This document shows, one piece after another, positions 8,901 to 55,978 of a DNA stretch of 64,000 bases (position 1 is the first letter of the stretch; each line of letters starts with the position of its first letter). The notes beneath the pieces are model-generated. The model was not told the DNA's origin. It saw only the letters and a list, made by a program, of their open reading frames with translations, and searched no databases. The position numbers and the translations under genes were made by a program. The DNA lies in the IMG/VR virus record IMGVR_UViG_3300037423_000611, positions 8,501 through 72,500 of that record, one strand, 5' to 3'. Origin of the DNA: a virus. Taxonomy: Duplodnaviria; Caudoviricetes.

Positions 8901-11900
8901 TCTATATATTCGTCTGTCTTGTTCTTTTCATCATCAATCCACTTGATATTTTGTTCTTTTGCATTTTTGATATAATCAATAACTGCATCTTTACCTTTAG
9001 AAAGGACACTTGCAAAATCTTGATGTTTTACAATTAACTTATCTAGTGTCTCAGCGGAGATATGACCTTGATCACGCATTTCAGTAAATGCTTTATTAAG
9101 AATATCTATTTCTTTACTAGACTCTTCTACTCTTTGAGTCAAAGCACCAAGTGCCGAAGTTTTTTCAGATGTTTCGTCATTTTCTTGAACTGCATTTATA
9201 TTCTTTTTTAATGCGTCTGTGGCGCTGACAACGCCATTTTTAAAATCCTCAATAGCCTTTTGCCTATCTTCGATTCCTTTTTTTTGGGCTAGTAAATCAT
9301 CTTGTTTTTGTAAAGCCTTAGACAATTCTGGAGCCTTGGACATGTAAACAGAAATTTCAGAAACATATTTACCAAATTCTTCGTACGCCTGATTAGAACG
9401 GTCATTCAGTTGATCGACCAGAGATGTATTGCCAACTTTCCTAGCATCCTCTATTTGTTGGTTGTATAATTTTTGTCTTTCTTTATACTCAGTTTTAGCA
9501 TCTTCAATCGCTTGAACATGATATTTCTGTTGATATTGATAAATATCGTCAGATGTATTTTTCATTTTTGATTCATATTCATCGATATCTTTTTTGTTCT
9601 TCTCTAAATCATTGTTGACAATACTTAAATCAAGTTTGTTTTTCAAGTCTGCGTTCTTAAGTTGCTCATCACTCATCTTCTTTAATGTATCTGTGAACTG
9701 TTTGGCTTTAGTCGCATTGATATCTAATGAGTCTCCATACTTACCCATACTTTCGACAAGTTGAGGAGCGATGGATTTAATTTGTTGCATAACTTGATTT
9801 AATTCGTCTTGTTTTTGTTTATTATTTTCTGCTTGAGGTTTTAATTCGTTATACTTTTGAACTAATTTATCAATGTTGTCTGCTGTTTCTCTAGTTTTTA
9901 ATCCATTTTCCATTAAGGATTGTGCGCTGCTATCAGCAGATTTAGAAACACTCATGAAAGATGCTCCCAAAGTTTCAAGAGCAACCAAAGTAATACCAAT
10001 CCATCCAGCAGATAATTTTGCAACTTTGAATGCTTCAGATAAAAATATAATAGCTTTACCTAATCCATATACGCCTGCTGCAATAATTGGAAGTTTGACA
10101 TTCCATCCGTCTGTCGCTTTTGTAAATTCAGTGAATCCATGAGTTAAACTTGTAACAGCATCAATTGTCCCTCTAAAAATATTAGTTAAACCAGAACCAC
10201 CAACAACAAGACTCAATTCAGTCCAATTAGTCTTTAGTTTATTAATGGACGCTTCGATACTTTGAAGATAACGTTCATTTTCTTGAGTTGCCGAACCAAA
10301 AGATTTTAGAGATTTTTCCGAAGCGTTAGTGGCTATTTGAAAATTGTCGAATAAGGCAAGAAACCTCGTTAATTGAAATCTACCAGCCTCAGCAACAGCA
10401 ATATTTTCTTTCTGTGTGCTCGTGAGTGAATTCCAACGAGTGGCCAAATCTTTAATAATGTCATCGACTTTTCTAACTTCACCTGTATATTTATCAAATA
10501 CATCAACACCTACAGCAGATAGAGCATTTACAGATTGATCAGAAGAAAATCGGGAGAAAATTGTTTTTAAAGAGTTACCAATTACATTACCCGATTCTCT
10601 GGTAACTGAACCTATTGCGGTTATATATCCCAAGACATTATCAATACTTGCCCCATAGGTGTGCGCTGTAGCTGCGCTTTTACTTAAAGCATCACTTAGC
10701 GTTTTAGTATCAACAGCAAAGTTGTTAGAAACATTATTTAATTTGTCAACTATTGTTATTGAATCTTTAGCTGCAATACCGAAAGATATCATTGTTGCAG
10801 TGAGGTTATCCATCGATTCCTTTGCACTTAATTCACTAACGTTTGTTTGAAGCATTGCGGTATGAGTCATAGCAAGTGCATCTGCTGCGCTATAGCCTTG
10901 TTGTGCAAAGCCAATAAGAGCCTCATTTGTATCTGATAAAGATTTTCCTAATTCATTACTTATTTGTAAACTACCTTGTAGAATTTGATTCATGTTAGTT
11001 CCAGCATCCATAACACGAGACAATTGTGTCATTTGTGTGTCTATTTCTTTGATTGTGTCCAACATTGAATGTAGTGCTCGTTGCGCTCCAAATACCAAAC
11101 CACCACCAACAGACCAAAGAAACATTGAGGATATTGCGTGACTAACTTTCCCTGAAATTGAGTTTGCTGTTTCAGTAGCATCAACTTTTAATAATTTCAA
11201 TTCTTGTCTAAGTTTAACTAATTCTGTTTCTGCGCTTACGCTTGCAGGATTTATTTCTCTTATACGTGAGACTAAGTTTTCAAGTTGTTTAGTATCAATA
11301 TTACCATGATAAGATGCTTGAGCCTGTTTTGCTGCAATAAGTAAATCTTCTTGAGACTTTGTGTTATTTTGAGACTGTTTTTGCAACTGCTCTGCTTGTT
11401 TTACTTCGTCTTTTTGAATCTTAATTATTTCGTTTTGTTTTCTTTGTTCTTCTTGAATGGCTAAATCAGCCAATTTCTTCCTTATATTTTGCTCTTCTTT
11501 AAGAACAGATTCCCTTTCTGCTTCTGCTTTTTTTGCTAACTTAACCTCATTATCAAATTCTTTTTGTGCTTCTTGATCTTTCTTTTGTTGATACTTCAAT
11601 TCATTTTGAAATAATTGTTCATTTAATTTATCTGATTGGTCGAGTATTGTTTTAGCAGATAATAAAAATTGCGTATCATATGAACCATTTTTGTTGGCAA
11701 CATACAATGGCGTATATTTCATTTTTTCAATAATGCCATTTGTTTTCTCTAATTCGATGTTGTAATTTTTAATTCTGCCCGTTTCTTCATCAATATTTGT
11801 TTTGATTTTAACTTGACCAAGTTTTTTATATTCGTTTTCAATATCTTGAATAGTTATTTTGATATCTCTGCCATCTTGTTTAAGTTTTTCTATGTATTCA

Positions 11901-24468: not shown

Positions 24469-25959
24469 TTAACCCTGTAAACCGTATTTTTGAAGCAAGG
24501 TTTGAGGGATTAAATCTTCTTGTTTAGAAGCTGTTACTACTACTTGTTCAGTTTTAGAGTTTGTCTCAATAACTTTTTCTTTAGCAATTTCTTCAACTAC
24601 AATACTGTTGAGTTCGATTTCATTGCATTCTTCAAGAGCGTTAACTACTCTTTCAGACTTCATAGTGTCTTCTGGGAGTAATTTTGAAAACTTCTCAACT
24701 AGAGCAGTCTTCTTTGCTTCTTTTTCAGCAACCTCAACCTGTTCTTTGTATTTAGATAGGTCTTCGATTTGGGAGTTTAATTCAGAAACTTGTCCCTCAA
24801 GAGATTTCTTAGACTCTTCTTGGGATACGATAGTTCCGTTTAATTCAGCAACCTTAGAGTTAAGTTCATCAACTTTTACATTTGCAGCATCAAGTTGAGA
24901 TTGAAGTTCTTTAATTTGTTCTTCAGTCATTCCTTGTTCCTCCTTCAATTTGTTATTTAATTCAGTTACTTGCTGCTCTTTATCAACAAGCAACTGATTA
25001 ATATTTGTCCCCACTGGTTGATATGTAATTTCTACTTGTTGCCAAGAATCCTTTGCGTCAAGTGAAACAACGTTGTTTGTAATCGAATAATTAGCCTTAA
25101 ACATCACTGCCGAATTATCCCAGTCTTCTAGAATAACATATGTCTGATACAATTCTCTAATCCAGTAAGTGTATGTTCTTTCATCTGTCTGAGGATCAAT
25201 GGGATTGACGAGATTATACAATTGATCTCTAATATCCCCATATGATAATTCATTAGTTTCAACCTTACCATGATATTTGACTTCATATCCTTTATTAAAT
25301 AAAGCCTTTTCAGGTTTTGACATAGGCTCATCTCCTTTCTTATTTGATTTCAAATCTTGTTGCACAGCACTCGCTACCTCTCTTTGGAAGATATTTGTTA
25401 CTCCAGCATCAGAATCAGCAGGTGTAACAGAACTACCTAATAGACAATTTGCAAGGTAACTATAATTAGTAGGGTATCTATATTGCTTTGTTGGATTATC
25501 TCCAAACTGATATATTTCAACCTCAACAGAACTTGTGCTTTGATTATCATTAAATAGACGTTCTATACAACTCATAATTTGAGGGTATTTATAACTCCAA
25601 ACAACTGCTTTCGCATACAACGCCTTTTTAACTGTTTCATCATTTATTTTATAATCATCTATCCAAACATCAGTAATAGTTCCAATAGCGAGAGTCCTAA
25701 GTTCTACTATATGACCATTTTCGTCAAATACAGGTTCGTGATCACCTAAATCATCTTGAAGTGGATAATAGGAGCAAACAACAGGCTTATCAATAAGAGT
25801 ATTCATAAATTGCTTTGTGTGTTCTTCTCTAAAGTCTAATCCATTTCCATTTACATGGTCTAATTTATGAACCAACATAGTGATTTCTCTTGTATTAGAA
25901 TCTTTATTTGAAATTTCGATGATGGTGGAGTTAAGTGTGAGTTTTTCTGTCACTTTCAC
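24469..25959 (-). CDS. Prohead protease-scaffold fusion (YonD-like)
   Basis: GTG start after AGGAGG. N-terminal protease-like region (HVNGNGLDF, DLGDHE, SSVEVEI) and C-terminal coiled coil. Confidence 0.75.
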   Translation of the reverse strand: MKVTEKLTLNSTIIEISNKDSNTREITMLVHKLDHVNGNGLDFREEHTKQFMNTLIDKPVVCSYYPLQDDLGDHEPVFDENGHIVELRTLAIGTITDVWIDDYKINDETVKKALYAKAVVWSYKYPQIMSCIERLFNDNQSTSSVEVEIYQFGDNPTKQYRYPTNYSYLANCLLGSSVTPADSDAGVTNIFQREVASAVQQDLKSNKKGDEPMSKPEKALFNKGYEVKYHGKVETNELSYGDIRDQLYNLVNPIDPQTDERTYTYWIRELYQTYVILEDWDNSAVMFKANYSITNNVVSLDAKDSWQQVEITYQPVGTNINQLLVDKEQQVTELNNKLKEEQGMTEEQIKELQSQLDAANVKVDELNSKVAELNGTIVSQEESKKSLEGQVSELNSQIEDLSKYKEQVEVAEKEAKKTALVEKFSKLLPEDTMKSERVVNALEECNEIELNSIVVEEIAKEKVIETNSKTEQVVVTASKQEDLIPQTLLQKYGLQG

Positions 25960-51877: not shown

Positions 51878-52639
51878 ATGAGTAAGAAATTTATTTGCTA
51901 CCTATGTTCCACCCACGGTATTAAAGATGAAATGATTAGAGAACAAGTAAGTCCAAACACTTCCAGATATTATCATAAGGATTGTAAAAATATAAATACA
52001 CTAAACAAAAGCATTCATTCAGGGTTACATAGAAAAGAGAGTAAAAAACATCAGGGAAGTAAACGTGTGATATTTGAACTTTTAACCAATGGTGATAGGG
52101 TACTCATAGATCAGCATCTACAGCAAGTTAACTTGGATTTCGATTTCATTGCTGTTGAATCTCCAGTAACCCATATACATAAAAATAAAATTCCATTCTT
52201 AGATATTCATGACTGCACCAGTTGTATTGAACAGTATAAGAAAGATAATGAATTTAATTTAGAGACTGTAGAGGAATTTCACAATCAGATTAATGTGAAT
52301 GCCTATAAATCAGTAACTACGCAAGATTATTTTTATCAACATCCATGTCTTAATTGTCCGTTTAATCATCTAAGATACAAATATATATTTGACGTAGGGA
52401 TCGGGAAAGAGGGTAATTACACCGCAGCGTTTGAAATTTTACATACAAGTAAAATTAGTAAAAATAAAATAATTTATTGTATAAATAATGATATCCAGTT
52501 ATTTGAAATACATACTATAGAAGCACGTAAGAAAAATAAAAAATTAAAATGCGAACGTGTATGGTGGAAAGATGCAGAAGGGAATATCCAGATTTGTGTT
52601 TCCTATAAAGGCTTGTTCAATGAAGAGGTGATTTCATGA
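51878..52639 (+). CDS. Cys/His-rich hypothetical protein coupled to the rep gene
   Basis: 253 aa; ATGA overlap with the next gene; possible degenerate PD-(D/E)XK motif (FDVGI...AAFEI). Confidence 0.65.
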   Translation: MSKKFICYLCSTHGIKDEMIREQVSPNTSRYYHKDCKNINTLNKSIHSGLHRKESKKHQGSKRVIFELLTNGDRVLIDQHLQQVNLDFDFIAVESPVTHIHKNKIPFLDIHDCTSCIEQYKKDNEFNLETVEEFHNQINVNAYKSVTTQDYFYQHPCLNCPFNHLRYKYIFDVGIGKEGNYTAAFEILHTSKISKNKIIYCINNDIQLFEIHTIEARKKNKKLKCERVWWKDAEGNIQICVSYKGLFNEEVIS

Positions 52640-54486
52640 AAATCATGCTCGACACAAAATCATATACACATAAGCCTGAATCAGAAATTGGCATTGTCAC
52701 AAAAAGAATCATGCAATACCCAGTTGATATTACTCCTCAGCAACTAACACAAGAGATATTAAAAGGTAAAAGTTTTATACCTGCTTATATAGGAACTCCA
52801 AATAGCAAAGGTGTAGTAAAAAAGTCTAATGAGTGTTGGACATATCAAGAATTATTATGTTTAGATTTTGATGAAGGAATGATGTTAAAAGAAGCATTAG
52901 AAGAATTTAATAATACAGCTATGTTTATTTATACAACATTCAATCATAGTGTTAAACAAGATAAATTTAGAGTTGTATTTCAATTAGATAAGAAATTAAC
53001 GAATTATAAAGACTTTAGTGATATCATTACCTATTTAATTGATAAGTATAAAGCAGATATACAATGTAAAGATGGATCTAGATTATACTTTGGTGGTAAG
53101 GAAGTATATGAATTAAATTATAATAATAAATTAAATGTTGATGAATTATTAATTGTTAGTAGAGAGTATGTTAGTAACAAAAGTAAAAATAACAATAAAA
53201 ATAAAAATGTGAGAAAAAGTACCCATCATATATTAGATATGGGTAGTAAATATCTATCTAATATACAAAGGGTACTAAAATCCCACCATGAGAAATTAAC
53301 AAGAAATAGAACGACTGAAGCAAAGGAAATAACCAATAAGTTAGATTTAATGGGATATTTATTATCTAGAGACTTATATACATATCTTAATATTGAAGAT
53401 GGATTAACTCCATTCTGTTGTATATTTCATGACGATAAGAAGCCATCAGCTAGTATTATCAAGAATCAAAAGGGATTCCAAATATACAAGTGTCATAGTT
53501 CTAAGTGTGGATTTACAGGTAATATATTTAGAATCACCGAGAGATTATTTGAGTTAAATAATGTAGAGGCCATTGATTATTTGTGTGATGTGTTTAATGT
53601 ACAATTGGTTGAATCTGAATGGTATCAAAAACAAAAGAGGATTTATGAACAGAATATTTACTATCTGCTAAGTGGGGCAATGGAATATGAACATGAGTAT
53701 CTATATAAGGTGATTAAGAGACATATACCATTGCTGGTGATATTGAATCAAATTGCCATCATGACTATGGGTTCTGAAATGATTAAGCGAAACGAGGAGC
53801 CAATATTCTTTAAGCCTATGAAGGAAATTATGAATATGTTTGCTGCTTTTGTTGCTGAAATTAAAGAGATTGAGGAAAAAGATAAGAAGTTTACAAGAGA
53901 TTTGAAGGAACTAAATAAGCGAATCAATCTATTTGCTTTATTGGGTGTAGTGAATAAGTTACATATATCTGATGTGCCTACAGACATTTATAAGAGATAT
54001 ACAGCACTACAAAAGCAAGTGACTGGAGATGAGAAATTAAAGATCCCAAACTTTTATTATATCCCATCCTACTCAGATCAAGTGCTAACTAGCGCTAATC
54101 AATTAGCTGACCAGTTCAAACAAACTATGAGCATGAAAGGATTCTCCAGAGAAATGATTATGAGGGCTATGGGAGAAGATGCTGCGAATAGAGTTTTCCC
54201 TATGAAGAAAGGTAAAGAGTTAACTAAGACGAGTGATAAACTGGCCTTAGAGATGAAAGATTTAGTGCTGAGTCTATTGGATGATAAGGGATATGTAATT
54301 GAGAAAGAGATATTTGATTATACATATGGAAGCAAAGAGAAAAATTTGAGGGTACTGAAAAGATGCTTACAAGAAATGTTAGACGAATATGGATTGAAGA
54401 GAGTAAGGTTGAATAAAGAATTGAAAAATGGATTGGGTATAGTAGTGGAAGGATATCCAAATGTAATATTAAGAGATAGTGAGTAG
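52636..54486 (+). CDS. Replication initiator / primase-like protein with CHC2-type zinc finger
   Basis: LCLDFD...YTTFNH...KFRVVF...D.QCKDGSRLYFG (AEP/VirE-N-like); CCIFHDDKKPSA...YKCHSSKCG; origin-like region immediately downstream. Confidence 0.7.
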   Translation: MKIMLDTKSYTHKPESEIGIVTKRIMQYPVDITPQQLTQEILKGKSFIPAYIGTPNSKGVVKKSNECWTYQELLCLDFDEGMMLKEALEEFNNTAMFIYTTFNHSVKQDKFRVVFQLDKKLTNYKDFSDIITYLIDKYKADIQCKDGSRLYFGGKEVYELNYNNKLNVDELLIVSREYVSNKSKNNNKNKNVRKSTHHILDMGSKYLSNIQRVLKSHHEKLTRNRTTEAKEITNKLDLMGYLLSRDLYTYLNIEDGLTPFCCIFHDDKKPSASIIKNQKGFQIYKCHSSKCGFTGNIFRITERLFELNNVEAIDYLCDVFNVQLVESEWYQKQKRIYEQNIYYLLSGAMEYEHEYLYKVIKRHIPLLVILNQIAIMTMGSEMIKRNEEPIFFKPMKEIMNMFAAFVAEIKEIEEKDKKFTRDLKELNKRINLFALLGVVNKLHISDVPTDIYKRYTALQKQVTGDEKLKIPNFYYIPSYSDQVLTSANQLADQFKQTMSMKGFSREMIMRAMGEDAANRVFPMKKGKELTKTSDKLALEMKDLVLSLLDDKGYVIEKEIFDYTYGSKEKNLRVLKRCLQEMLDEYGLKRVRLNKELKNGLGIVVEGYPNVILRDSE

Positions 54487-54515
54487 ATCATCTGAAAAGG
54501 TGGTCTATTTTTTAT
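54484..54515 (+). terminator. Terminator after rep
   Basis: tagatcatct gaaa aggtggtcta tttttt. Confidence 0.65.
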
Positions 54516-55372
54516 GTGTGTAAATTTATATGTCGGTATATAGTATCGAGAGTGTATTTGAAATGGATCTAAAATATGCCCCCGTGGTAGGTTGAGCGTA
54601 GATTGGATAAGGGATTGAGATGTATTTTTGATGTGAGAATGTGAATGAGTGATGAAAGTGTAAAATCGATTGTGTGATGGAATGTGAGTGTGAATCGAGT
54701 AGAGTGTAGAGAATATGTGGATTCTAATACAATTTAGAGTGGAAATTAGGGTAATTTGGATTAGGGTAGGGTAGTTGGAAGAGTAATAGTGAGGAGTGGC
54801 GAGAGCGTGTTATAGAGGGATTGAGACGATATATGCTGCGATGGTGAACGCGATATGGGAATAGTAAGTGAGGGTGATAGGGAGAGAGTATGATAGGGAT
54901 ATGTAAACTTTGTGGTGAATGTGAGTTTACATATAGATGGAAATTAATGGATAGTTGGTAGGGTGATCTAGTGTAGAAGATAGGACGGAAATGTGAAGAT
55001 TAGATGAAGGGAAAGTCTAAAATTTAGGCTGAGTGTGGAAATGGAAGTGTTGCGAGGATATTTGTCGAATAATGTCGAATTTTGGATGTAAACCACGCCC
55101 CCACCCTTGATATATAAGGATTATTCAAACTCCATCTAATAGCAATGTAACCCAATGTTATTTATGTTACCTACATTCATACCTACATTTGCACGATACA
55201 GACCAACCAAAAAGCCCAGTCTGTAATATGCGTGTATAATACAACAATTGTAGATTGCATGGGAACGAATGTTACATATTTTCCTATGATATCATCCATC
55301 ATTCACGGCTCGTAATTGGTCTGACCAATATCGAAGAATAACATGGAAACCGCATATGAAGACTTCACATAC

Positions 55373-55407
55373 TTATCCACAGTTAATTGTGTATATCTTG
55401 TTGATAA
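55373..55407. promoter_or_regulatory. DnaA-box cluster
   Basis: Perfect TTATCCACA (55373-55381) plus two inverted 1-mismatch boxes TGTGTATAT (55388-55396) and TGTTGATAA (55399-55407). Confidence 0.65.
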
Positions 55408-55411
55408 TATT

Positions 55412-55427
55412 TGTTTCACGTGGAACG
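55412..55427. promoter_or_regulatory. parS: Host-type parS (Spo0J/ParB binding site)
   Basis: TGTTTCACGTGGAACG; its reverse complement CGTTCCACGTGAAACA differs from the consensus TGTTNCACGTGAAACA at one position. Confidence 0.75.
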
Positions 55428-55732
55428 TTTTATAATTATTTTACATTCATATTATCTATTCTATCTGCAATCCTATCCATAATTATATATAAGTTTTACT
55501 TATCATCACATCATTATTAATAAGTTTATATTATTATCATCTTATTATCATATTATCCTATTCCATTTCCCATTATATCTCTCCAATGATCTAATTATTA
55601 TCAGTTTTACACACTCGCATTTATACAAATAAAATAAACACGAACAATATTTTTCTTTACATTTACTCACTATAGGTTTATAATTATAAGCGTAGATAGT
55701 TAATACATATTAATTCTTAGGAGGTTATTATA

Positions 55733-55978
55733 ATGCTAAAGTTAAAAGAGCAATTCGAAGTATACGCCAATTACTACAATGTAGAAACCGATAGTGTAGA
55801 CTCTAATAGGGAATTCGAAGTACTTTCAAATATGCTCGATTCATTCTTAGATTACGAAGAATTCTCTCCATTGTTTGATATTCTTTGCACACTAAACAAT
55901 GATAAGAAAATAAACATAAAAGAAAATTGGAATAAATTTTCTCTAGCATTAATTCAAAGTATCACTAATACACTTTAG
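55733..55978 (+). CDS. Hypothetical early protein
   Basis: Promoter-like TTTACA...TATAAT and AGGAGG RBS. Confidence 0.65.
   Translation: MLKLKEQFEVYANYYNVETDSVDSNREFEVLSNMLDSFLDYEEFSPLFDILCTLNNDKKINIKENWNKFSLALIQSITNTL

Follow-up and report, generated by a model that had tools for sequence, protein, structure and literature searches.

The Locus and Its Gene Content

The window considered here (the whole stretch of DNA that was analysed, 64,000 nucleotides in length) is part of a 72.5-kb phage contig and contains, at positions 54487-55732, an ORF-free gap of 1.24 kb. To the left of this gap lie, in order, a ParM-like partition gene, an FtsK/SpoIIIE gene, a recombinase-fold gene, a 253-aa ORF and a rep-like gene; to its right, a rightward operon of small genes starts at position 55733. 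The contig is otherwise SPbeta-like, as indicated by its YonO-type RNA polymerase (24% identity, E 2e-29), and the genes for the large terminase and the portal are found on the minus strand, left of the gap.

The rep-like gene (52636-54486, plus strand) encodes a primase of 616 aa (Pfam PF01807; PHROG 25531 and DNA-primase PHROGs), which is primase-polymerase-like in its N-terminal part and also has a CHC2 zinc finger, and it ends in a terminator-like hairpin located by a terminator scan at 54481-54510 on the plus strand. Its homologues number 84 in Bacillales and Enterococcus; the nearest one (P0001, on a contig of 3.1 kb) is 88% identical, and that of L001, a 136-kb element of Brevibacillus gelatini which is the closest relative with sequence compared, is 58% identical. 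Distant copies of rep are also carried by 27-41-kb plasmids of Staphylococcus and B. licheniformis. Metagenome scans for close relatives returned either nothing or only relatives of 23-25% identity, and a scan for relatives with the portal as single protein gave no match.

The DnaA-Box/parS Cluster

In the right arm of the gap, about 310 bp from the conserved core described below, a cluster of putative protein-binding sites occupies 55 bp. A perfect DnaA box, TTATCCACA, lies at 55373-55381 on the plus strand; it is followed on the minus strand by a weak, inverted DnaA-like box, TGTGTATAT (55388-55396), carrying two mismatches against the strict consensus, by a further inverted box at 55399-55407 (TGTTGATAA, that is TTATCAACA on the minus strand) carrying one mismatch, and, exactly 4 bp past the latter, by the 16-mer TGTTTCACGTGGAACG at 55412-55427. 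The first-pass annotation of this DNA, which had described a perfect DnaA box and a parS site 4 bp after an inverted box, is thus borne out by the sequence on both points; of the two inverted boxes with one mismatch that it had listed, the one at 55399-55407 stands and the one at 55388-55396 is weaker than claimed. Also present is the long AT-rich tract that it had placed after parS (55430-55655; GC 19-26%, almost G-free). The position of the cluster downstream of rep is correct as to direction, but the cluster starts 890 bp past the end of that gene, and a pac-type core lies between them.

An ORF of 54 aa runs over the sites (55356-55520); since it has neither a Shine-Dalgarno sequence nor homologues, the DnaA and parS sites are treated as non-coding, and a small membrane-peptide gene across them was rejected on the same grounds.

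Read on the opposite strand, the 16-mer agrees with the B. subtilis-type parS TGTTTCACGTGGAACA at 15 of 16 positions, and there is no mismatch in its 14-bp core, GTTNCACGTGNAAC. As a 16-bp palindrome it also agrees at 15 of 16 positions with the consensus TGTTNCACGTGAAACA of the 10 chromosomal parS sites of B. subtilis (PMC7022226). Natural parS consensus sequences differ at their outermost bases: in S. pneumoniae these are A...T, the parS of M. smegmatis has been described as a 14-bp core, and the consensus of M. xanthus ends in G, as the window parS does (PMC7022226). Judged by this match, the 16-mer is a genuine chromosomal-type parS, as the first-pass annotation had proposed.

Chance is a poor explanation for such a site. 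Across the 72.5-kb contig it is the sole match with three or fewer mismatches; the number of matches with at most one mismatch expected per contig, calculated analytically from the base composition of the contig, ranges from 0.0014 (for this 16-mer) to 0.022 (for the N-consensus), and from 2e-5 to 4e-4 inside the 1246-bp gap. The window parS therefore exceeds chance. A parS-like palindrome serving as a repeated phage operator was ruled out, half-sites being unclustered elsewhere and CACGTG occurring only twice in 72.5 kb. The DnaA boxes are a different matter: with at most one mismatch, 29 are observed in the window against 25.6 expected, three similarly close pairs exist in the contig, and the pair alone is at chance level. 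Moreover, TTATCCACA contains no G, so that the G-poor composition of the arm favours such a box.

As to the protein that could read the parS site, a Pfam ParB_N search of the contig, which is only about 45% complete, gave no match, and ParB_N is likewise absent from the L001 record, from two 100%-complete relatives, from the rep-bearing SPbeta-like contig G004 and from SPbeta. With no ParB_N in the contig, as far as it is complete, or in these five related records, the ParB/Spo0J of the host is the only plausible reader of the site, if it is read at all.

The Surrounding Gap and the SPbeta pac Region

The organization of the gap can be followed from left to right. Past the rep hairpin, a motif census in relatives identified the left copy of a pac-region boundary motif (TCTAAAATATGCCCCC; 54568-54583, plus strand), which is followed by a left arm (54584-55030) whose plus strand is rich in G and nearly devoid of C, with a GC skew of +0.7 to +0.9, the arms of relatives being alike. 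The conserved pac core (55031-55102, plus strand) consists of GAGTGTGGAAATGGAAGTG, a 35-nt spacer and GATGTAAACCACGCCCCC. In the right arm, parts of 55114-55655 are C-rich and almost G-free, with a GC skew down to -0.8, and its AT-rich portion leads to the best sigma-A-like promoter of the rightward operon (TTTACA-17-TATAAT; 55656-55684, plus strand; 11 of 12 matches in a promoter scan). In the AT-rich, G-free tract, TTATTATCAT recurs at 11-bp spacing (55531-55551); these repeats may serve the right arm as phased sites of protein binding or of DNA bending.

Mirror-image skewed arms around a core are a property of the window and of its relatives alike. An nhmmer model of the pac core, for which 38 relatives were used and the window, L001 and L006 (a 194-kb provirus) were left out, found a single match in the contig, at 55019-55092 (E 6.7e-6), and the 35-nt spacing of the core is common to the window, SPbeta, L001 and L006; L001 and L006 have the core block and its spacing, the remainder of their arms being unalignable with the window. 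In IMG/VR the motif variant TGTAAATATACCCCC was matched by 119 loci, of which 52 have an upstream G-rich tract, and in most of these 52 no rep homologue is present in the upstream sequence covered; the same core with skewed arms occurs in at least 50 IMG/VR loci. SPbeta itself is among the matching families, its element lying between yonP and yonR. Written in its general form, as GTGTGGAAnTGGAAGTG, 35 nt, then GATGTAAA..CCCCC between mirror arms, the core can be seen in the window (54568-55655), in SPbeta (L161:5466-6417) and in L001 (7900-8640), and in the window, as in several relatives, the C5 motif occurs a second time, at the border of the G-rich arm.

For SPbeta the function of this interval is documented: restriction mapping by Fink and Zahler 1982, as cited in PMC8270828, placed the pac or genome-opening site in yonP-yonR, and read ends of Goe11-14 and phi3T placed pac in the same interval, with headful packaging proceeding leftward (bioRxiv 10.1101/2021.11.22.469490, Kohm et al.). 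The deposited record of the SPbeta-like phage BUCT083 (ON107264) opens inside the conserved core, between GGAAGT and GCTATGG, and this opening point is a hint at the position of the cut. A role of yonP-yonR as YonO promoter was ruled out, the mapped start of SPbeta being upstream of yonK and outside that interval (PMC5467207). Searches of the gap for other kinds of element were negative: Rfam, with E up to 1, gave no structured RNA match, BLAST of the gap and of 24 kb surrounding it gave no match in collections of phages and plasmids, and iterons sought in the gap amounted to weak short repeats. We conclude that the gap at 54487-55732 is the counterpart of SPbeta yonP-yonR and, by homology, the predicted pac or genome-opening region of a distant SPbeta-like phage. 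The reading as an oriC mimic or rep-linked origin, put forward in the first-pass annotation, finds no support in this homology, nor in the rarity of the pairing in host chromosomes described below.

Conservation among Relatives

Conservation of the parS site in relatives, which had been proposed as a check on its function, was not found. About 24 related records (some 2.7 Mb in all, including SPbeta, the Brevibacillus element, four complete proviruses and the closest portal relatives) were scanned with at most one mismatch, or at most two for the first three, and yielded one further parS only: AGTTTCACGTGGAACA, which shares the 14-bp core of the window site and lies at a different place in G004 (25556-25571; L165:1501-1516), between a yonN-like HU gene and a yonK-like gene. 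As about 0.8 such sites are expected by chance across 2.7 Mb, the G004 site adds little; the idea which it prompted, of parS as an element of YonO late promoters, was ruled out, nothing similar being present in SPbeta yonN-yonK. The window parS is therefore not conserved in relatives. In L006, at about 11515-11535 on the minus strand and at the equivalent right-arm place, there is a palindrome, TTGTTTCATCTAGTGAAACTA, with parS-like half-sites split by 5 nt.

The DnaA boxes have a counterpart in L001, where four co-oriented boxes lie within 45 bp (TTATCCACA, TTATCAACA, TTATCCACA, ATATCCACA) at an equivalent right-arm position (L001:8481-8522), with an offset from the core of +234 as compared to +275 in the window; only three perfect DnaA boxes exist in the 136 kb of L001, and two of them are in this cluster. 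The right arms of the other relatives contain no DnaA boxes or scattered boxes with one mismatch, these being in forward orientation. The module is, on this comparison, a lineage-specific add-on and not a conserved part of the pac region.

Recurrence of the Pairing in Other Phages

The juxtaposition of the two kinds of site was also searched for across IMG/VR, with a pattern consisting of TTATCCACA, 10-40 nt and then GTTNCACGTGNAAC; 28 loci (L180-L207) have a DnaA box followed by the parS core in this way, and a control scan with the parS core reversed, which has the same composition and is still palindromic, returned 0 loci. Most of the 28 have at least two DnaA boxes by parS, and in some parS itself occurs two or three times; several unrelated lineages are represented, their GC contents ranging from 33 to 61%, and two of the loci are in complete genomes with terminal repeats and without a ParB_N match. 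L193 and L197 reproduce the arrangement of the window, with a forward box and an inverted box shortly before parS. The position of the module, where checked, varies: one broad clade has it upstream of the genes for the large terminase and the portal, at a distance of about 1-1.3 kb, a complete 36-kb genome has it between the lysis genes and an early nuclease gene, and in the 6-kb contig L199, which encodes a rolling-circle Rep (PF23343), parS is followed by two perfect DnaA boxes, 265 bp after rep. The last contig (L199:3217-4568) is probably from a small ssDNA phage, given its rolling-circle Rep.

Of 401 genomes sampled from one Bacillota lineage, 1 has a DnaA box and parS spaced by 10-40 nt, which makes a copy of the host oriC a poor description of the cluster; that the pairing was copied from the host chromosome is likewise unsupported by these sampled genomes. 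A full-text literature search found no paper on a DnaA-box/parS phage module. If the module does recur in phages, as seems to be the case, the window contains a weak instance of it that is not conserved.

Spo0A Boxes and a Possible Link to Sporulation

Within the 35-nt spacer of the pac core, 333 bp from parS, two perfect Spo0A boxes stand in tandem, separated by 3 bp (TGTCGAA-TAA-TGTCGAA; 55063-55079, plus strand). Perfect 0A boxes are rare in the 72.5-kb contig, which has only six, two of them in this tandem, and such a site is expected about 5e-4 times per contig, as estimated from base frequencies; the tandem pair was found in none of the relatives examined. A spacing of 3 bp is typical of the footprinted Spo0A sites of phi29 and Nf (PMC2731898), and the same account, citing Meijer et al. 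2005, links the five parS sites of phi29 and its six consensus 0A boxes to the holding back of lytic growth and to spore entrapment; the same idea has been discussed for SPO1 (PMC12991052). The phi29-type set of sites, namely a host parS together with 0A boxes spaced 3 bp, is present here in the form of one parS and the 55063-55079 pair, and the genomes in which relatives occur, those of Paenibacillus, Metabacillus, Priestia and Brevibacillus, all belong to spore-formers.

A Proposed Docking Site for Host Proteins and Its Alternatives

Taken together, these features suggest, with a probability that we put at about one half, that the 55-bp cluster is a docking site of the phi29 kind for the ParB and DnaA (and Spo0A) of the host, placed in the right arm of the pac region. 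According to this proposal, host ParB/Spo0J would load at 55412-55427 and spread over the pac core and the early promoter, possibly recruiting SMC, and DnaA would occupy the boxes adjoining parS; the phage DNA could then be handled as an origin-proximal piece of host chromosome, to be positioned or partitioned with it, and at sporulation it might be drawn into the forespore, as described for phi29, with Spo0A~P on the tandem site in the pac core simultaneously shutting the pac site down. A plasmid that would otherwise be lost can be stabilised by a chromosomal par operon and one parS site, according to the review PMC7022226. Counting against the docking of host proteins are the lack of parS conservation in relatives, the incompleteness of the contig, whose missing half may encode a reader of the phage's own, the presence of one parS only, as compared to five in phi29, and the weakness of the DnaA part, in which a single perfect box is accompanied by a box with one mismatch and another with two.

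The same sites could be viewed as a DnaA-assisted replication origin for the Rep primase, in which the boxes and the AT-rich tract would be unwound and parS would partition an episomal prophage. Such an origin would agree with the location of the site downstream of a primase-type rep, with the AT-rich tract after the boxes, with the similar combination of rep, four DnaA boxes and AT-rich tract in L001, with the L199 contig, where parS and two DnaA boxes follow a rolling-circle rep by 265 bp, and with the ParM-like partition protein, FtsK and Rep of the contig, which fit an episomal phase. We nevertheless consider it unlikely: the gap is homologous to SPbeta pac, whose core and arms exist in SPbeta and many relatives without an upstream rep homologue; in five other relatives that carry rep, no cluster of boxes follows the gene; the G-poor right arm is found in relatives without DnaA boxes; the number of DnaA boxes in the window is at chance level; and no iterons were found in the gap. 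An obvious array of trinucleotides, as in a DnaA-trio, was not seen by eye. That the palindrome and the DnaA-like boxes have no function at all, having arisen by chance or drift in a fast-evolving, skewed non-coding arm, would explain why parS is unconserved in relatives, why DnaA boxes occur at the expected frequency and why the right arms of the window, L001 and L006 are unalignable, and the statistics are post hoc, many motifs having been examined in the first-pass annotation. Chance would nonetheless produce a 16-bp match of this quality 0.001-0.02 times in a contig and about 1e-4 times in the gap, parS and a DnaA box stand 4 bp apart in an arrangement with 28 occurrences in viral contigs against 0 for the control, and the tandem perfect Spo0A site, itself expected about 5e-4 times per contig, is 333 bp away; an absence of function is thus quite improbable.

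Still less probable, in our estimate, is a regulatory or decoy role, by which DnaA and ParB would tune the early promoter or pac cleavage, or phage copies of the sites would titrate both proteins from the host origin. Multicopy DnaA-box clusters do perturb initiation in B. subtilis, and several positions would suit regulation: the sites precede the best early promoter by 230-280 bp and are separated from the pac core by 310 bp, the boxes of L001 are about 90 bp upstream of a consensus promoter, and the parS of G004 is immediately upstream of the yonK-like gene. Set against this are the distance to the promoter in the window, which is large for direct control, and the lack of any parS-like sequence in SPbeta yonN-yonK.

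Returning to the docking of host proteins, the observation made in the first-pass annotation was largely right, and its origin reading is mostly replaced by docking sites in a pac region; the up to three segregation strategies which it suggested for one replicon stand as an inference only. A more general proposal, which we advance tentatively and regard as doubtful, is that a DnaA-box cluster with a host-type parS is a widespread, repeatedly evolved phage module that would plug phage DNA into the segregation of the host origin, through ParB clamps/SMC and DnaA, at genome-end or control regions; in spore-formers it may be coupled to a Spo0A~P site on the region of the pac cut, in such a way that starvation would switch the phage from packaging to carriage in the forespore.

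phi29 is essentially the only phage whose use of host ParB has been investigated in molecular detail, and the same kind of site is now found in a large SPbeta-like phage, beside DnaA boxes and with a textbook Spo0A dimer site on the start of packaging. If these sites are functional, they would represent a general route by which phages ride the chromosome cycle of the host, be it in a carrier state, by episomal inheritance or by spore entrapment; the motifs being those of B. subtilis proteins, their binding can be tested without culturing the phage.

Comparison with Known Systems

With SPbeta the phage shares the conserved core block with its 35-nt spacing, the C5 motif, the mirror G-rich and C-rich arms and a late, YonO-containing gene block to the left; it differs in having, between the YonO block and the pac region, a plus-strand module of 11 kb that contains the ParM-like gene, FtsK, the recombinase-like gene and rep. 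No parS with at most one mismatch exists anywhere in SPbeta, nor does its pac region contain the tandem 0A site, and at the offset of the window cluster SPbeta has only TTATCCACT, a box-like sequence with one mismatch.

P1 oriR, F, pSC101 and RK2 are plasmid or phage-plasmid origins with auxiliary DnaA boxes, and the window resembles them in the presence of a Rep gene beside DnaA boxes and an AT-rich tract; it differs from them in that no iterons were found and in that the tract belongs to a pac-type region shared with relatives that do not have this rep. The chromosomal ParB-parS centromeres of Firmicutes employ the same 16-bp palindrome as the window, the difference being that the window site is carried by a phage and is not near a chromosomal origin.

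A further parallel is offered by the virulent Bacillus phages phi29 and Nf. phi29 is a protein-primed podovirus of 19 kb with five parS sites and six consensus 0A boxes at promoters and origins, whereas the present phage is large and SPbeta-like, encodes a YonO-type RNA polymerase and has only one parS, next to putative DnaA boxes, and one tandem 0A site, located inside the pac core. What the two have in common are sites for the Spo0J/ParB and Spo0A of the host, the want of a ParB gene of their own (as far as the genome is known here), the 3-bp spacer of the 0A boxes and hosts that form spores, which for the present phage is judged from where its relatives occur.
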